Positions 4,482-9,574 of a stretch of 64,000 nucleotides of DNA are shown piece by piece (the first letter of the stretch is position 1; every line of letters starts with the position of its first letter). Source of the stretch: Candidatus Bathyarchaeota archaeon (GTDB taxonomy: Archaea; Thermoproteota; Bathyarchaeia; TCS64); assembly GCA_043826455.1 (NCBI GenBank), contig JBDRQD010000066.1:1-64000 (forward strand), written 5' to 3'. The notes beneath the pieces were generated by a model. It was not told the DNA's origin. It worked only from the letters and a program-made list of their open reading frames with translations, and made no database searches. A program made the translations under genes and the position numbers.

Positions 4482-4627
4482 GTGATCAATTCATTCTCAT
4501 CCCAAGAATATATAAGCCTAAACATTGTCGCTGGGATAATCACAAAAAAGTTGCATCATCTAATATAAAGTACATGGATAAGGGGCATGCCGTTATATCA
4601 CCGCGCCATTACTGTCTTGAGGATAAC

Positions 4628-5563
4628 ATGAGTGACGCTTTAGGGCTCGGCAAGGTAACCAAGGAGGTTTTCCGTAGAAGCGTCCTACCCTTCATACCAG
4701 TAGAGAGGGACCCTGAGCTTGACGGCGCCACCATAGGGCTCACAGGGCGCACCGTGATCGCCCACAGCCCCAGCATCGGGGTGCCCCTGGAGGCTCTGGG
4801 CTTCTTCGCCTTCCACTACTCCGCCAGCAACGTGGCGTGTAAGTTCGGGAGGCCCACCCACCTCATCACGGGCATATACCTGCCTCTGAGGACGAGGGAG
4901 GCCAACCTGATGACCATCGCCAGGAGCCTGGGGGACGAGGCAAGAAGATACGGGGTGGTGATCACAGCCGGCCAGACCGCCACCTACTACGGCCTAGAGA
5001 TACCCCTAGTAACCTCCACGTGCCTGGGGGAGGCCCTCAGGCACCCCATTAAGCCTGTTCCAGGCGATAAGGTGCTGCTCATCGGCGAGGTGGGCGACGA
5101 GGGGGTCTGGCTTAAAGGCCTCGAGAGGGGCGAGGAGTCCGAGGCGTGGAGGAGGTTCACGCCGCTGCCAGCCATCCTGGGGCTCCAAGGTGTCGACCAA
5201 GTGAAGGTGATGCATGACGTCTCCGAGGGCGGGGTTAAGGGTTCCCTTTACGAGGTGGCTGACAGCCTGGGCGTCGGCTTATCAGTGGACACGGAGGAAG
5301 TGGTTTACGCTGAGGGCGCGGAGAGGCTTGACGATGACCCGCTGAGGGCCCCCTCCTACGGCGCTCTGGTGGCCGTGGTGGACCCGGAGGGCATCAACCG
5401 TGTTAAAAGAGTGTGCGCCAGTATCGGCTGGCCCGCCACGTGCGTGGGGGACGTGGTTAAGGGCAAGGGGTTGAAAGTAGACGGCGTGGTGGTCACCGAT
5501 CAGAAAAGGATAGACCTTGACGAGATATACGGCTCATTCCAGGCTCCGCGGAGAGACCCCTGA
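4628..5563 (+). CDS. AIR synthase (PurM/ThiL/HypE) superfamily protein
   Basis: GKV N-terminus, MHDVSEGG motif, C-terminal D-E-I-Y. Confidence 0.8.
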   Translation: MSDALGLGKVTKEVFRRSVLPFIPVERDPELDGATIGLTGRTVIAHSPSIGVPLEALGFFAFHYSASNVACKFGRPTHLITGIYLPLRTREANLMTIARSLGDEARRYGVVITAGQTATYYGLEIPLVTSTCLGEALRHPIKPVPGDKVLLIGEVGDEGVWLKGLERGEESEAWRRFTPLPAILGLQGVDQVKVMHDVSEGGVKGSLYEVADSLGVGLSVDTEEVVYAEGAERLDDDPLRAPSYGALVAVVDPEGINRVKRVCASIGWPATCVGDVVKGKGLKVDGVVVTDQKRIDLDEIYGSFQAPRRDP

Positions 5564-5623: not shown

Positions 5624-5643
5624 CCAGACATTGTTGAGCACCT

Positions 5644-5729
5644 GAAGGGGAGCTGGGCAACAGCCCGGCTGAGAGGACGTTGAATCGTCGACCCTTGGAA
5701 CCTGATCCAGGTAATACTGGCGGAGGGAA
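5644..5729 (+). ncRNA. TPP riboswitch (THI element) 1
   Basis: GGGGAGC-P3-GCTGAGA...ACCCTTGGAACCTGATCCAGGTAATACTGGCGGAGGGA consensus, upstream of thiamine genes. Confidence 0.95.
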
Positions 5730-5733
5730 AGAA

Positions 5734-6327
5734 GTGAAAGAGAGGAAACCGATAACCGGATTCTGGTGCAGTACACCGAACATCCCACGTTTTTATTTAG
5801 CCAGCCTCAGCGAAGAGGCCAGAAGTATAACGAAGGCGCCCTCGACTAGAAGGATCGCCCTGGCGGCTGTCCTGTCCGCGTTGACCGTGGCGCTCTCACC
5901 CCTATACATACCCTTGGGGGCCACCAAGTGTTTCCCGGCGCAGCACATGATGAACGCGGTGGCCGGCGTGCTCCTCGGCCCATGGTACGCCGCTGCCATG
6001 GCTTTGGCCACGGGAACTATAAGGAACATGTTCAGTCTAGGCACTCTCTATGCTTATCCTGGTGGGATACCTGGGGCGCTGGTTGTCGGCGTCACCCACA
6101 GGTATCTGAAGAAGGTTGACGCGGCAGCACTAGTGGAGCCCCTCGGGACAGTGGTAGTAGGAGCCACTTTGAGCGCCTTACTCCTGGCCCCCGCCCTGGG
6201 CCACTCCATGACACTCTACTTCTTCTGGGTGGCCTTCGCAGCCAGCAGCGTACCTGGAAGCGTGCTAGGCTACCTGGTCATCAAAACAGTGAGGCGTCTA
6301 GGATTTGACCAGTACTTCAATGAGTGA
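5734..6327 (+). CDS. thiW: ECF transporter S-component, ThiW family
   Basis: KCFPAQHMMNAVAGVLLGPWY, GTLYAYPGG, EPLGT, SSVPG; GTG start at 5734 inferred from GGAGG spacing. Confidence 0.9.
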   Translation: MKERKPITGFWCSTPNIPRFYLASLSEEARSITKAPSTRRIALAAVLSALTVALSPLYIPLGATKCFPAQHMMNAVAGVLLGPWYAAAMALATGTIRNMFSLGTLYAYPGGIPGALVVGVTHRYLKKVDAAALVEPLGTVVVGATLSALLLAPALGHSMTLYFFWVAFAASSVPGSVLGYLVIKTVRRLGFDQYFNE

Positions 6328-6862
6328 ACTGGCCAGAAAAAGGACCCTCATCGTGGGGGACGTGGGCGCCGGTAAGACAATTCAGACCCGTAGGCTCCTA
6401 GAGGAGGCCCTCAGTCTAAGCCTCGGCCCTGTCACAGTGATGGACATGGCTCCAGAGGCGCGGATGATGAATGGGACGCGGGTGGGAGGCCCACTTCTCG
6501 AAGCAGATGTCCCCGGGGTCAGGGTCCTGAGGAACAGGTGCATAAAGACGCCTCGCCTATCAGCTGTGAACACCAAGGACCTCGTGGAGCAGGCCCTGCA
6601 CAACGCCGTGGTGGTCGAGGGCCTTCTGGAGCAGTTCAGAGCAAGTCCTTCACCGGTCCTATTCATCAACGACGTCTCCATTTACCTGCAGCTGGGCGAC
6701 CTGGAGACCCTGTGGGACACCATAGCCATGGCCGAGACTGTGGTGGCCAACGGCTACTTGGGGGAGAAGTTGAGGGGCGACCACGGCTCAGGAGTCTCTG
6801 AGATGGAGAGAAGGGCGATGGAGGAGCTGGCTGACCGGTTCCACGTGGTGGTGAGACTGTAG
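6320..6862 (+). CDS. Uncharacterised small P-loop NTPase
   Basis: Walker A GDVGAGKT and Walker B-like LFIND; start overlaps thiW end. Confidence 0.8.
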   Translation: MSELARKRTLIVGDVGAGKTIQTRRLLEEALSLSLGPVTVMDMAPEARMMNGTRVGGPLLEADVPGVRVLRNRCIKTPRLSAVNTKDLVEQALHNAVVVEGLLEQFRASPSPVLFINDVSIYLQLGDLETLWDTIAMAETVVANGYLGEKLRGDHGSGVSEMERRAMEELADRFHVVVRL

Positions 6863-6902
6863 CGTGCCCCAGGAGTCAAACATGAGAGGAGGTTGAGGTA
6901 AG

Positions 6903-8261
6903 TTGAGTAGAGTGTATAGAGCCCTGACCATAGCGGGCTCAGATAGCGGTGGAGGCGCCGGCATCCAGGCCGACCTGAAGACCTTCGCCGCCCTAGGCGT
7001 GCACGGCATGTCCGCCATCACAGCCATTACGGCCCAGAACACCCTTGAGGTCACGGCTGTCCAGGACGTTGACCCTGAGATCATCTCAGCGCAGATAGAC
7101 GCCGTCGTACGGGACATCGGTGTCGACGCCGCCAAGACAGGGATGCTCCACAAGGCGGAAGTCATAGAGCTGGTGTCCGAGAAGGTCGAGGAGTACGGGT
7201 TCCCCGTGGTTGTCGACCCTGTCATGGTGGCGAAGAGCGGCGCTGTGCTCCTGGACCCCACGGCCAAGGGCACACTTATAGACAGGCTTCTGCCCCTGGC
7301 CACGGTGGTTACCCCCAACGCCATGGAGGCCGAGGCCATATCAGGGATAAAGGTGTCCACCATCGAGGAAGGCAAGGATGCAGCAGAGGCAATATCCGGG
7401 ATGGGCGCTCAGACTGTCCTGGTGAAAGGGGGCCACATATTCCACGAGGAGAAGGCAGTGGACATCCTGTACCACGAAGGCGTGTTCACGCTCCTGGAGG
7501 GTAAGAGACACGAAACCAGGGACACTCACGGCACAGGGTGCACCCTGTCGTCGGCTATCGCAGCGGAGATCGCTAAGGGTAAGGACATCCCCGAGGCCGT
7601 GGAGAGAGCCAAGGCATACGTCAACATGGCCATCCGGCACGGCCTCAGGATCGGCGGAGGCCATGGCCCCCTGAACCACATGACCGAGCTTGTTAATCAG
7701 GCGGAGCGGTACAGGGTGCTTGAGGACCTAAGGAAGGCGGTCAAGGTCCTGGAGGCTGCCCCGGAGCTGGGGAGCCTGGTGGCCGAGGTGCAGATGAACA
7801 TAGGGGTTGCCCTCCCCTACGCGTCCACGGCCGAGGAAGTGGCAGCCGTGGAGGGCAGGCTGACCAGGAGGAGGGACGGCGTCAAGGCGTCAGGCTGCCC
7901 CTGGTTCGGGGCCTCAGGCCACATAGCCAGGACCATCCTGGCGGTGAAGAGGTTCGACCCGGAGGTGCGGGCGGCCGTGAACCTCAGGTACTCTGACGCG
8001 GCAGTGGAGGCGTGCAGGGGCCTCGACCTTGTGGTCAGCTTCTACGACAGGAGGGAGGAGCCTGAGGAGATGAAACATGTAGAAGGGGGTACAACCTTCT
8101 GGGGGGCAGAGCAGGCCGTCAAGAGGGCTGGCATGGTGCCCGACGTCATCTACCACCACGGGGACTGGGGCAAGGAGCCCATGATCGTGGTACTGGGGGC
8201 GTCCGCAGCCCAGGTGGCGGATAGGGCCGTGGCGGTGGCAAGGAGGCTGACCGGCGCATGA
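6903..8261 (+). CDS. thiDN: Bifunctional HMP/HMP-P kinase and ThiN thiamine-phosphate synthase
   Basis: TIAGSDSGGGAGIQADLKTF, HGTGCT; C-terminal AEVQMN, FGASGH, GDWGKEPM. Confidence 0.96.
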   Translation: MSRVYRALTIAGSDSGGGAGIQADLKTFAALGVHGMSAITAITAQNTLEVTAVQDVDPEIISAQIDAVVRDIGVDAAKTGMLHKAEVIELVSEKVEEYGFPVVVDPVMVAKSGAVLLDPTAKGTLIDRLLPLATVVTPNAMEAEAISGIKVSTIEEGKDAAEAISGMGAQTVLVKGGHIFHEEKAVDILYHEGVFTLLEGKRHETRDTHGTGCTLSSAIAAEIAKGKDIPEAVERAKAYVNMAIRHGLRIGGGHGPLNHMTELVNQAERYRVLEDLRKAVKVLEAAPELGSLVAEVQMNIGVALPYASTAEEVAAVEGRLTRRRDGVKASGCPWFGASGHIARTILAVKRFDPEVRAAVNLRYSDAAVEACRGLDLVVSFYDRREEPEEMKHVEGGTTFWGAEQAVKRAGMVPDVIYHHGDWGKEPMIVVLGASAAQVADRAVAVARRLTGA

Positions 8262-8926
8262 GGTTCTCGGATCATCTTCGGGAGCAGGCGAAGGGAATCT
8301 GGGAAGCCATATTCGTGCACTCTTTCGTGGGGGAGCTTGGGCAGGGGTCCCTGCCCACTGAGAAGTACCTGTACTACATCAAGCAGGACTACGTGTACCT
8401 CCTGGACTTCTCCAGGTGCCTGGGGATCGCGGCCGCGAAGGCGACGGCGCTAGACGACATGAGCACCCTGTCAGGGCTCATGAACGGGTGCCTGAGCTAC
8501 GAGATGAACATCCTGGGCGGCCACCTAGCAGAGCTCGGGCTGACCCGGAAGGATTTAAGCGGCATCGTGATGGCTCCAACTAACCACGCCTATACGCGCC
8601 ACATGCTCGCCGTTGCCTACTCCGGGTCGGTGGCCGAGAACCTGGCCAGCCTGCTGCCCTGCATGTGGACGTACCAGCTCGTCGGAGAGAAGCTGTGGGA
8701 GGAGATGCCTGAGACCCTCGGCGGCCACTACCTGGAGTGGGTGAAGGGGTACAGGTCAGCCGAGTACAGGGGTCTTGTGGACAAGTATAGAGCGTTGATC
8801 GACATCCTGGGGGAGGCTGCGGGCAGGGCTGAGCGCTCAGCCATGGTCGACCACTTCATGACTAGCAGCCGGTACGAGTACATGTTCTGGGACATGGCCT
8901 ACAGGATGGAGACGTGGCCGGTCTAG
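8258..8926 (+). CDS. tenA: Thiaminase II / aminopyrimidine aminohydrolase
   Basis: YIKQDYVYL, LLPCMW catalytic Cys, EYMFWDMAY. Confidence 0.95.
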   Translation: MRFSDHLREQAKGIWEAIFVHSFVGELGQGSLPTEKYLYYIKQDYVYLLDFSRCLGIAAAKATALDDMSTLSGLMNGCLSYEMNILGGHLAELGLTRKDLSGIVMAPTNHAYTRHMLAVAYSGSVAENLASLLPCMWTYQLVGEKLWEEMPETLGGHYLEWVKGYRSAEYRGLVDKYRALIDILGEAAGRAERSAMVDHFMTSSRYEYMFWDMAYRMETWPV

Positions 8927-8930
8927 CCCA

Positions 8931-8945
8931 GTTAAACTTATATCC
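8931..8945 (+). promoter_or_regulatory. TATA promoter for riboswitch 2 and thiT
   Basis: AAAC-TTATAT; first T is 29 nt before the aptamer start. Confidence 0.65.
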
Positions 8946-8966
8946 CCGCACCTAGCGAGTTGAAGC

Positions 8967-9052
8967 GAAGGGGAGCTGGGCAGCAGCCCGGCTGAGAGGA
9001 CGTTAACGCGTCGACCCTTTGAACCTGATCCAGGTAATACTGGCGGAGGGAA
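8967..9052 (+). ncRNA. TPP riboswitch (THI element) 2
   Basis: 81/86 identical to 5644-5729, differing only in loops and junctions; ends 6 nt before the thiT ATG. Confidence 0.96.
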
Positions 9053-9058
9053 CCAGAA

Positions 9059-9574
9059 ATGAGTAAAGAGATAAACACCCGGGTATTGGCTGAGGTGGCA
9101 GTGTCCGTCGCCCTAGCCTACGTTCTTAACCTGATCATCGTGTACCACCTCCCGCAGGGAGGCAGTATAACCCTTGGCAGCATGGTGCCCATACTGCTAC
9201 TGGGCCTCAGGAGGGGCCCCAGTACAGGCGTCTTCGCGGGGGCCGTCTTCGGCCTCGTGCAGCTGTTCCTGGGGGGCTACTGGTTCACCCTTGTGCAGGT
9301 GCTCCTTGACTACCCAGTGGCCTTCGCGTGCCTGGGGCTGGCCGGCTTCTTCAAGAACAACCCCAATGTGGGAGTCGTCGTGGCCGTCCTGGGCCGCTTC
9401 CTGTGCCATTTCGTGAGCGGCGTGGTCTTCTTCGGGGAGTACGCGCCCCCAGAGTTGGGCCCTGTGGTCTACAGCATTGTGTACAACGGCAGCTACATGC
9501 TTCCGGAGCTGGTGATCAGCGTGGCTGTGATCTACCTCCTCATCAAGAGGGGCGTCCTAGAGTACAGCCTATAA
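9059..9574 (+). CDS. thiT: ECF transporter S-component, ThiT thiamine transporter
   Basis: LPQGGSIT, QVLLDYPVAF, HFVSGVVFFGEYAP, YSIVYNGSY. Confidence 0.94.
   Translation: MSKEINTRVLAEVAVSVALAYVLNLIIVYHLPQGGSITLGSMVPILLLGLRRGPSTGVFAGAVFGLVQLFLGGYWFTLVQVLLDYPVAFACLGLAGFFKNNPNVGVVVAVLGRFLCHFVSGVVFFGEYAPPELGPVVYSIVYNGSYMLPELVISVAVIYLLIKRGVLEYSL

Follow-up and report, generated by a model that had tools for sequence, protein, structure and literature searches.

Thiamine pyrophosphate aptamers without a P1 helix, and with a Shine-Dalgarno sequence in P4, ahead of thiamine salvage and transport genes in a Bathyarchaeia genome

The 64,000-nucleotide (nt) stretch of DNA analysed here, referred to below as the window, comprises positions 1 to 64,000 of contig JBDRQD010000066.1 from the Candidatus Bathyarchaeota archaeon assembly GCA_043826455.1. 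It carries two 86-nt elements, at 5644-5729 and 8967-9052, which a preliminary description made from the sequence alone had read as thiamine pyrophosphate (TPP) riboswitches ahead of thiamine salvage and transporter genes. The locus raises the questions of whether these elements are TPP aptamers, what they control and how RNAs this compact could act on the genes that follow them.

The whole window was scanned against Rfam with cmscan, in which the gathering score of the TPP riboswitch family RF00059 is 54.3 bits. Five matches reached the gathering score, two to RF00059 and three to tRNAs. Both RF00059 matches lie on the forward strand and cover the full model (1-105), the first at 5636-5746 with 62.5 bits (E 6.9e-10) and the second at 8959-9068 with 63.9 bits (E 3.2e-10). 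The THI-box motifs GGGG, CTGAGA, ACCC..GAACCTGATC, a TAAT loop and GCGGAGGGA are present as the preliminary description gave them. Its count of 81 identical positions among 86 was reproduced by direct comparison of the two blocks, as was the placement of all five differences in loops or junctions: one in the P3 loop (5660/8983), three in the P3a loop (5682, 5684 and 5685 / 9005, 9007 and 9008) and one in the J2-4 junction (5697/9020). Beyond the blocks, identity was 9/30 upstream and 13/30 downstream. A third copy elsewhere in the genome (G000:C32:2295-2405; locus L001, 1501-1611) scores 64.1 bits against RF00059 and heads a paralogous pair of thiW and P-loop nucleoside triphosphatase (NTPase) genes, behind which come thiC and another thiDN; the three genomic copies differ in loops only. 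By score and motif content, both window elements are confirmed as TPP riboswitch aptamers of this known family.

Conservation of the structure was assessed in an alignment of 56 distinct archaeal copies, these being the copies among 67 survey loci that were caught by a core-motif regular expression, which missed 11 loci. RNAalifold recovered helices P2, P3, P3a, P4 and P5 from this alignment, in which 38 columns were invariant. The ligand-contact core, consisting of CUGAGA in J3/2, ACCUGAUC..UAAU in P4/P5 and GCG-N-AGGGA, is present in both window copies and invariant in the alignment. Over the 23 pairs, 97.6% of cells were able to pair compared with 89.6% after shuffling, and the covariation score was 0.278 compared with 0.122; none of 500 shuffles was as high on either measure. 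Changes on both sides were seen in 10 of the 23 pairs, and cells with a double change numbered 111 as against 30 in the shuffles. When the 3' partners were slid by 1-3 columns, pairing was 28-60%. P4 is itself invariant in the alignment, and is uninformative on structure either way.

Both window copies lie on the coding strand in the 5' leader position ahead of thiamine genes. The order, all on the forward strand, is an AIR-synthase-family gene, switch 1, thiW, the P-loop protein, thiDN, tenA, switch 2, thiT, leuA and leuCD, and the Pfam assignments bear out the earlier gene order of thiW-NTPase-thiDN-tenA followed by the second aptamer and thiT. Behind the 56 aligned archaeal aptamers, 45 of the first downstream genes belonged to a thiamine-related or transporter Pfam family (ThiW 16, ThiT 17, ThiC 3, NCS1 permease 2, ABC binding protein 6 and ECF-like 1). 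The other 11 had no Pfam family, and seven of these encode membrane proteins of 177-181 aa behind a different leader type. ThiR, a protein with a ThiN domain, reportedly represses the transcription of thiamine genes in archaea. No ThiR-like gene was found in the genome: the ThiN family PF10120 had just two matches there, and both frames (454 and 477 aa) carry ThiD as well. The score, the covariation, the coding-strand position and the lack of a ThiR-like gene all support the reading of TPP elements ahead of salvage and transporter genes, and it is very likely that these are genuine TPP-responsive regulators. Sequence and gene context suggest RNA control over both salvage enzymes and transporters.

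The thiamine genes of the genome comprise thiC, two thiDN, tenA, two thiW, thiT and one EcfT. Searches of the genome for a true ThiM gave only a partial best PF02110 match (32.5 bits, in a 506-aa frame), those for Thi4 gave short FAD-motif matches only and those for ThiG gave partial matches only. Because Thi4, ThiG and ThiM were not found and two ThiW importers are present, the genome reads as that of a thiazole auxotroph, which would import thiazole and thiamine under RNA control.

The window copies lack the P1 helix that closes the three-way junction, and cmscan marks the P1 pairs of both as non-canonical. In the canonical register, the longest P1 runs at loci L001, L002 and L003 (2, 1 and 3 bp) were no more than shuffled sequences gave on average (1.9, 2.2 and 3.0). 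A substitute for P1 was sought by pairing the 60 nt upstream with the 22-nt 3' tail, and the best duplexes were no better than chance, 107 and 233 of 300 shuffles being equal or better. The window copies are a P1-less variant that passes the family cut-off without this helix.

The ribosome-binding site of each gene lies within the aptamer. The 16S rRNA of the genome ends in GGAUCACCUCCU, and its 3' end, ...CACCUCCU, is complementary to the GGAGG formed in both copies by the last bulge G and the 3' strand of P4. Within the window, 5-mers resembling a Shine-Dalgarno (SD) sequence were found 4-17 nt before the start of 31/84 long open reading frames (ORFs), compared with 9/84 internal control sites. 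Besides a TTG within the aptamer, no in-frame start other than the GTG at 5734 precedes the ThiW domain behind aptamer 1, and the thiW paralog behind the third copy has its GTG at the same distance, with the same GGAGG-to-GTG spacing. The first G of the P4 3' strand, the N of GCG-N-AGGGA, replaces a consensus U and so breaks a G-U pair of P4. Among 86 distinct aptamers, the start codon of a long ORF was at most 12 nt away in 29 of the 48 with G at this position and in 10 of the 38 with A or U, a tally of related sequences that uses automatic start calls, some of them visibly wrong (L043, L047, L058, L059).

Elements resembling the TATA box and the transcription factor B recognition element (BRE) were found upstream of the aptamers at a fixed distance. 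Counted from the first P2 base, the A/T content of 40 archaeal leaders with a P1 run of at most 3 bp peaked at 0.85-0.93 between -31 and -26; the 21 leaders whose P1 has at least 5 bp gave a broader A/T signal that extended further upstream. A passage of PMC4247193 places archaeal TATA boxes at a median of 23 bp upstream of start sites. From the TATA position and this spacing we infer that the two mRNAs begin 1-3 nt before P2, at about G5644 and G8967. These predicted starts coincide with the point at which the identity of the two copies begins (GAAGGGG).

With such starts, the aptamer would form nearly the entire 5' leader, of approximately 90 nt, of each of the two mRNAs (thiW-NTPase-thiDN-tenA and thiT), and a P1 helix would be absent from the transcript. 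Section 2.5 of PMC11477058 describes TPP as binding far from P1, tethering P2/P3 to P4/P5, and the ligand-free aptamer as undergoing unravelling of P5 and large changes in P4/P5. As the SD sequence is the 3' strand of P4, it would be open in the ligand-free ensemble and locked in the bound state. At low TPP the P4/P5 arm would be mobile and the 30S subunit could pair with GGAGG, such that the importers and salvage enzymes are made. At high TPP the P2/P3 and P4/P5 arms would be tethered, and GGAGG would be locked into the folded aptamer beside the start codon, blocking initiation. The elements would then be translational OFF switches that need no separate expression platform, and that act directly via the pyrophosphate-sensor arm. 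For leader 1, the minimum-energy structure coincides with the aptamer fold and leaves the start codon unpaired (-41.3 kcal/mol, z -2.84). A translational OFF switch through the SD sequence in P4 of a P1-less aptamer is, in our judgement, the probable explanation of this locus, though by no means a secure one.

Several observations weigh against it. The thermodynamic fold of switch 1 forms P4 even without ligand, so the switch would have to rest on tertiary locking, and around P4/P5 switch 2 and the third copy fold ambiguously (z -2.06 and -1.14). TPP aptamers are classed as P1-regulating switches in the part of PMC11477058 that treats them. A P1 of 5-6 bp is retained by many other copies in the class (for example L032-L035, L039 and L059-L065), for which reason the P1-less form is a sub-type and not the rule. 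Likewise GGAGG is not obligatory for a close start, since the 10 aptamers noted above have one, on crude start calls, with A or U in place of the G. Among the sequencing runs listed as containing this DNA none is of RNA, two metatranscriptome runs from the same study contain almost no sequence words of the locus, and the transcription start stays a predicted one.

The strongest alternative, which we nevertheless consider unlikely, is that the aptamers act on the level of the transcript, by decay that depends on the 5' end or by premature termination where a T-run occurs in the coding region. The predicted 5' end does lie inside a structured aptamer, and a T-run, TTTTTATTT, is found at 5790-5798, 56 nt into thiW; archaeal polymerases stop at oligo-T. 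However, the T-run is present neither in the paralogous leader L001 nor in thiT, and in 29 of 48 G-type copies the start codon lies right against the aptamer, which suggests that the initiation region is what the switch acts on. As a riboswitch-controlled terminator the T-run at 5790-5798 was rejected, as it is not conserved.

A conventional P1-dependent switch appears more doubtful still. Here longer or read-through transcripts would supply a 5' segment that pairs with the spacer and start codon upon TPP binding. P1 is the normal output helix of the TPP class according to the part of PMC11477058 cited above, the many P1-bearing copies of the class have it adjoining the leader, and both window aptamers stand directly behind a gene on the same strand, which makes read-through possible. 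Against this, there is no complementarity in the canonical register, nor any beyond chance within 60 nt upstream, the identity of the two copies ends exactly at GAAGGGG, and the TATA-like element keeps a fixed distance from P2. That the aptamers are relics which no longer regulate is highly improbable given their invariant columns and compensatory changes, the restriction of differences among the three genomic copies to loops, and the retention of the element ahead of the same gene families in 22/24 genomes of the genus.

The proposed OFF switch through P4 can be compared with several known systems. With the Escherichia coli thiM OFF switch, a member of the same family, it shares the core of P2, P3, CUGAGA, P4/P5 and GCG-N-AGGGA, the ligand logic by which thiamine transport and synthesis genes are repressed and, as proposed here, the translation-level output. 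The thiM platform uses anti-SD and anti-anti-SD strands, whereas the window leaders have neither P1 nor a separate platform of this kind; in them the P4 3' strand doubles as the SD sequence, and P2 is predicted to open the leader. In the SAM-III/SMK box, preQ1-II and type III preQ1-I riboswitches the SD sequence is part of the aptamer, and the shared principle is a ligand-stabilised fold that hides it without a second hairpin, although the folds and ligands are unrelated. In non-exhaustive literature searches we found, and otherwise know of, no description of an SD sequence embedded in P4 in the TPP class. Bacterial relatives in the same gene-family context have terminators, a hairpin with a U-run, after the aptamer (L107, L118, L131, L140, L145). 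Earlier archaeal TPP riboswitches, which have been attributed to Thermoplasmatales and in a few cases to Crenarchaeota, Korarchaeota and Thaumarchaeota, likewise have an archaeal host and thiamine transporter or salvage genes downstream; to our knowledge, none has been tested experimentally. ThiR performs the same regulatory task over a similar regulon, but is a protein and was not found in this genome. The family, ligand and regulon are known, while the lack of P1 and the SD sequence inside P4 are unusual, and the element is common in a lineage for which no printed description was found.

Two further observations concern the leaders themselves. A second leader type is found in the genus (L004, L005, L007, L009, L010, L012, L013, L020), with A or U for the G in GCG-N-AGGGA. 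It carries UUCUCAGC, complementary to the aptamer GCUGAGA, followed by a hairpin containing the SD sequence GGUGA and the start codon, and it heads the 177-181-aa membrane protein, possibly a new S component, that lacks a Pfam family. In the minimum-energy fold of switch 2, the loop and 3' strand of P5 in the aptamer (9033-9042) are paired to the thiT coding sequence CCGGGUAUU (9080-9095), a possible alternative structure; this coding sequence falls within a conserved protein motif.

The distribution of the element was surveyed as RF00059 matches above the cut-off in sampled genomes, among which related genomes are not independent. Matches were found in 22/24 other genomes of the genus and in 0/8 genomes of three other families of the order. 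In the class sample, 92/151 genomes carried the element, corresponding to 63/94 of the high-quality genomes and 48/79 genera. Some families were full or nearly so (f11 15/15, f26 10/11, f17 6/6) and others empty (f9 0/14, f12 0/7). In the phylum sample, 29/151 genomes carried it, with the matches outside the class concentrated in families f36 (8/13), f38 (8/15), f43 (2/5) and f50 (2/3), and none in f32 (0/19) or f41 (0/13). The preliminary description had started from the rarity of riboswitches in archaea, a premise that fails for this lineage.

Published counts of archaeal riboswitches list 79 for Euryarchaeota, 6 for Crenarchaeota and 1 each for Korarchaeota and Thaumarchaeota, and the section giving them names no Bathyarchaeia (McCown et al. 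2017, PMC5473149). A GTDB-wide Rfam scan exists (PMC11621547), passages of which hold no discussion of archaeal TPP switches, and as of 2021 the Thermococcus kodakarensis fluoride switch was stated in a passage of PMC8241225 to be the only natural archaeal riboswitch determined experimentally. Searches of the accessible literature gave no printed account of TPP riboswitches in Bathyarchaeia, nor, among the papers listed on riboswitches and Thermoproteota, one concerned with TPP in archaea.

The survey also touched on ThiN-domain proteins. Frames of approximately 300-340 aa containing ThiN, the size expected for ThiR, are found in other families of the phylum, f38 included. In f38 the riboswitch occurs together with a second, ThiR-like ThiN frame of approximately 328 aa. 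In f9, a family of the same class in which 0/14 genomes have the riboswitch, at least one genome has a 303-aa ThiN frame. No ThiN domain was found in 14 of the 29 riboswitch-positive genomes of the phylum sample; riboswitch-positive genomes of this kind are likely thiamine auxotrophs in which only the importer is regulated.

The gene that follows thiW, and is translationally coupled to it, encodes a protein for which no Pfam or NCBIfam match and no sequence match in the Protein Data Bank (PDB) was found, PDB hits being at chance level (E >= 0.066); it does not belong to the ThiM families PF02110 or TIGR00694. Its 98 homologues are named 'hypothetical' or, automatically, 'GTPase SAR1 family'. 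In the protein alignment GKT is invariant, and D42, P45, P78-R79, N95, T140, N144, Y146, G148, G156, S160 and E163 are conserved. An AF2 model (pLDDT 93.5) gave weak Foldseek matches of the RecA/ASCE type, the nearest folds being FlaH (4yds, TM 0.54), KaiC, Rho, RadA and thymidine kinase (2qq0, TM 0.45/0.48). With matches this weak (TM <= 0.54), a fold-based function call was rejected.

At the 80 named NTPase loci (L068-L147), 36 aptamers were detected by the aptamer model, all of them upstream and on the same strand, including in bacteria (Thermodesulfobacteriota). The gene upstream of the NTPase, determined for 74 ORFs, was ThiW in 34, ThiDN/ThiN in 6, MFS in 9, Nramp-like in 6, EcfT in 7, DUF2284 in 3, ABC ATPase in 1 and another family in 2, and in 6 there was none. 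In the class sample of 151 genomes, the NTPase was found in 41, ThiW in 39, both (counted by hand) in 37 and a true ThiM in 2. The own genome has an NTPase paralog at L001 2196-2720. ThiM sits in the ThiW-linked position in bacterial salvage operons; the role proposed here for the NTPase is the same, and the folds of the two are unrelated. As the NTPase gene consistently follows importers that are not homologous to one another, in genomes that lack ThiM, it is a candidate kinase that would trap imported thiazole, a better fit than a transport ATPase.

It is possible, as a tentative generalization, that the window aptamers represent a P1-less and platform-less sub-class of TPP riboswitch, in an mRNA that begins at P2, with P4 as the SD sequence; that thiamine regulation in much of Bathyarchaeia, and in several further lineages of Thermoproteota, would depend mainly on RNA and not on ThiR; and that this RNA would govern a P-loop kinase that replaces ThiM in thiazole salvage.

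The source genome is 2.95 Mb in 81 contigs, 97.7% complete with 7.2% contamination, and contains an archaeal small-subunit (SSU) rRNA (1491.8 bits). The named close homologues of its ThiDN are all 'Candidatus Bathyarchaeota', and contigs carrying the NTPase at 39-58% identity are labelled Bathyarchaeia or Bathyarchaeota. By these markers the host is an archaeon of the Thermoproteota ('TACK'), with the nearest named relatives of the two locus proteins in Bathyarchaeia/Bathyarchaeota, and the 'TACK-like archaeon' of the preliminary description is borne out. The same arrangement of two aptamers is found at L068, L072 and L077 and on single contigs of G071, G008, G016, G024, G006, G018 and other genomes (for example G071:C46, G008:C5 and G016:C6), and the G+C content of the locus is even throughout. 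Because this arrangement recurs elsewhere, the relatives are Bathyarchaeia and the G+C is even, a chimeric join at the locus, which had been raised as a possible source of error, is unlikely. One of these loci, L068 (record DATKWY010000012.1), bears the bacterial-genus label 'Candidatus Desulfaltia sp.', with an NTPase 90% identical, two aptamers, thiW and thiDN; as this contig carries the same archaeal two-aptamer locus, its taxon label is probably wrong. Elsewhere in the window, positions 1-2000 have a G+C of 0.44, compared with approximately 0.6 in the remainder, and contain a tRNA at 1278-1361 on the reverse strand. Coordinates of the features of the locus are given in Table 1.

Table 1. 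Aptamers, predicted expression signals and genes of the thiamine locus, in window coordinates
Feature	Position	Strand	Details
TPP aptamer 1	5644-5728	+	P2 5645-5649/5692-5696, P3 5651-5658/5663-5670, no P1
TPP aptamer 1, further parts	CUGAGA 5669-5674, P3a 5676-5679/5686-5689, P4 5701-5703/5724-5726, P5 5707-5710/5717-5720	+	
TPP aptamer 2	8967-9051	+	Architecture as aptamer 1, no P1; RF00059 63.9 bits
Shine-Dalgarno GGAGG, switch 1	5722-5726	+	Last bulge G and P4 3' strand; 7 nt before GTG 5734
Shine-Dalgarno GGAGG in P4, switch 2	9045-9049	+	Last bulge G and P4 3' strand; 9 nt before ATG 9059
Predicted archaeal promoter, switch 1: BRE-like GAAAA and TATA-like CGTTTTAA	5609-5621	+	Predicted start ~G5644
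Predicted promoter, switch 2 (AAACTTATAT), directly past tenA stop	8934-8943	+	Predicted start ~G8967
AIR-synthase-family gene	4574-5563	+	Weakly ThiL/HypE-like, under NCBIfam cut-offs
thiW, energy-coupling factor (ECF)-type S component, thiazole-precursor importer, GTG start	5734-6327	+	PF09512 155 bits; TIGR02359 160 bits
P-loop NTPase, 180 aa, candidate hydroxyethylthiazole kinase	6320-6862	+	ATG overlaps thiW stop (ATGAGTGA)
thiDN, fusion of hydroxymethylpyrimidine (HMP)/HMP-P kinase and ThiN thiamine-phosphate synthase	6903-8261	+	PF08543 331 bits, PF10120 199 bits, NF006346 571 bits
tenA, thiaminase II, pyrimidine salvage	8258-8926	+	ATG overlaps thiDN stop; PF03070 151 bits, TIGR04306 174 bits
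thiT, ECF-type thiamine S component, ATG 9059	9059-9574	+	PF09515 170 bits; TIGR02357 157 bits

Archaea lack bacterial-type terminators, and leaders as compact as these, consisting of a promoter, an aptamer of approximately 85 nt and a start codon, offer a minimal and testable model of signalling. An RNA of approximately 100 nt would bear on whether binding of TPP suffices to control access to the ribosome-binding site of an archaeal mRNA, and on whether the aptamer works without P1. The survey revises the rarity of archaeal riboswitches for one large, uncultured and environmentally abundant class. For the organism itself, the locus outlines what reads as the lifestyle of a thiazole auxotroph, with two ThiW importers and without Thi4, ThiG or ThiM, and for a missing salvage enzyme the co-regulated P-loop protein offers a concrete candidate.

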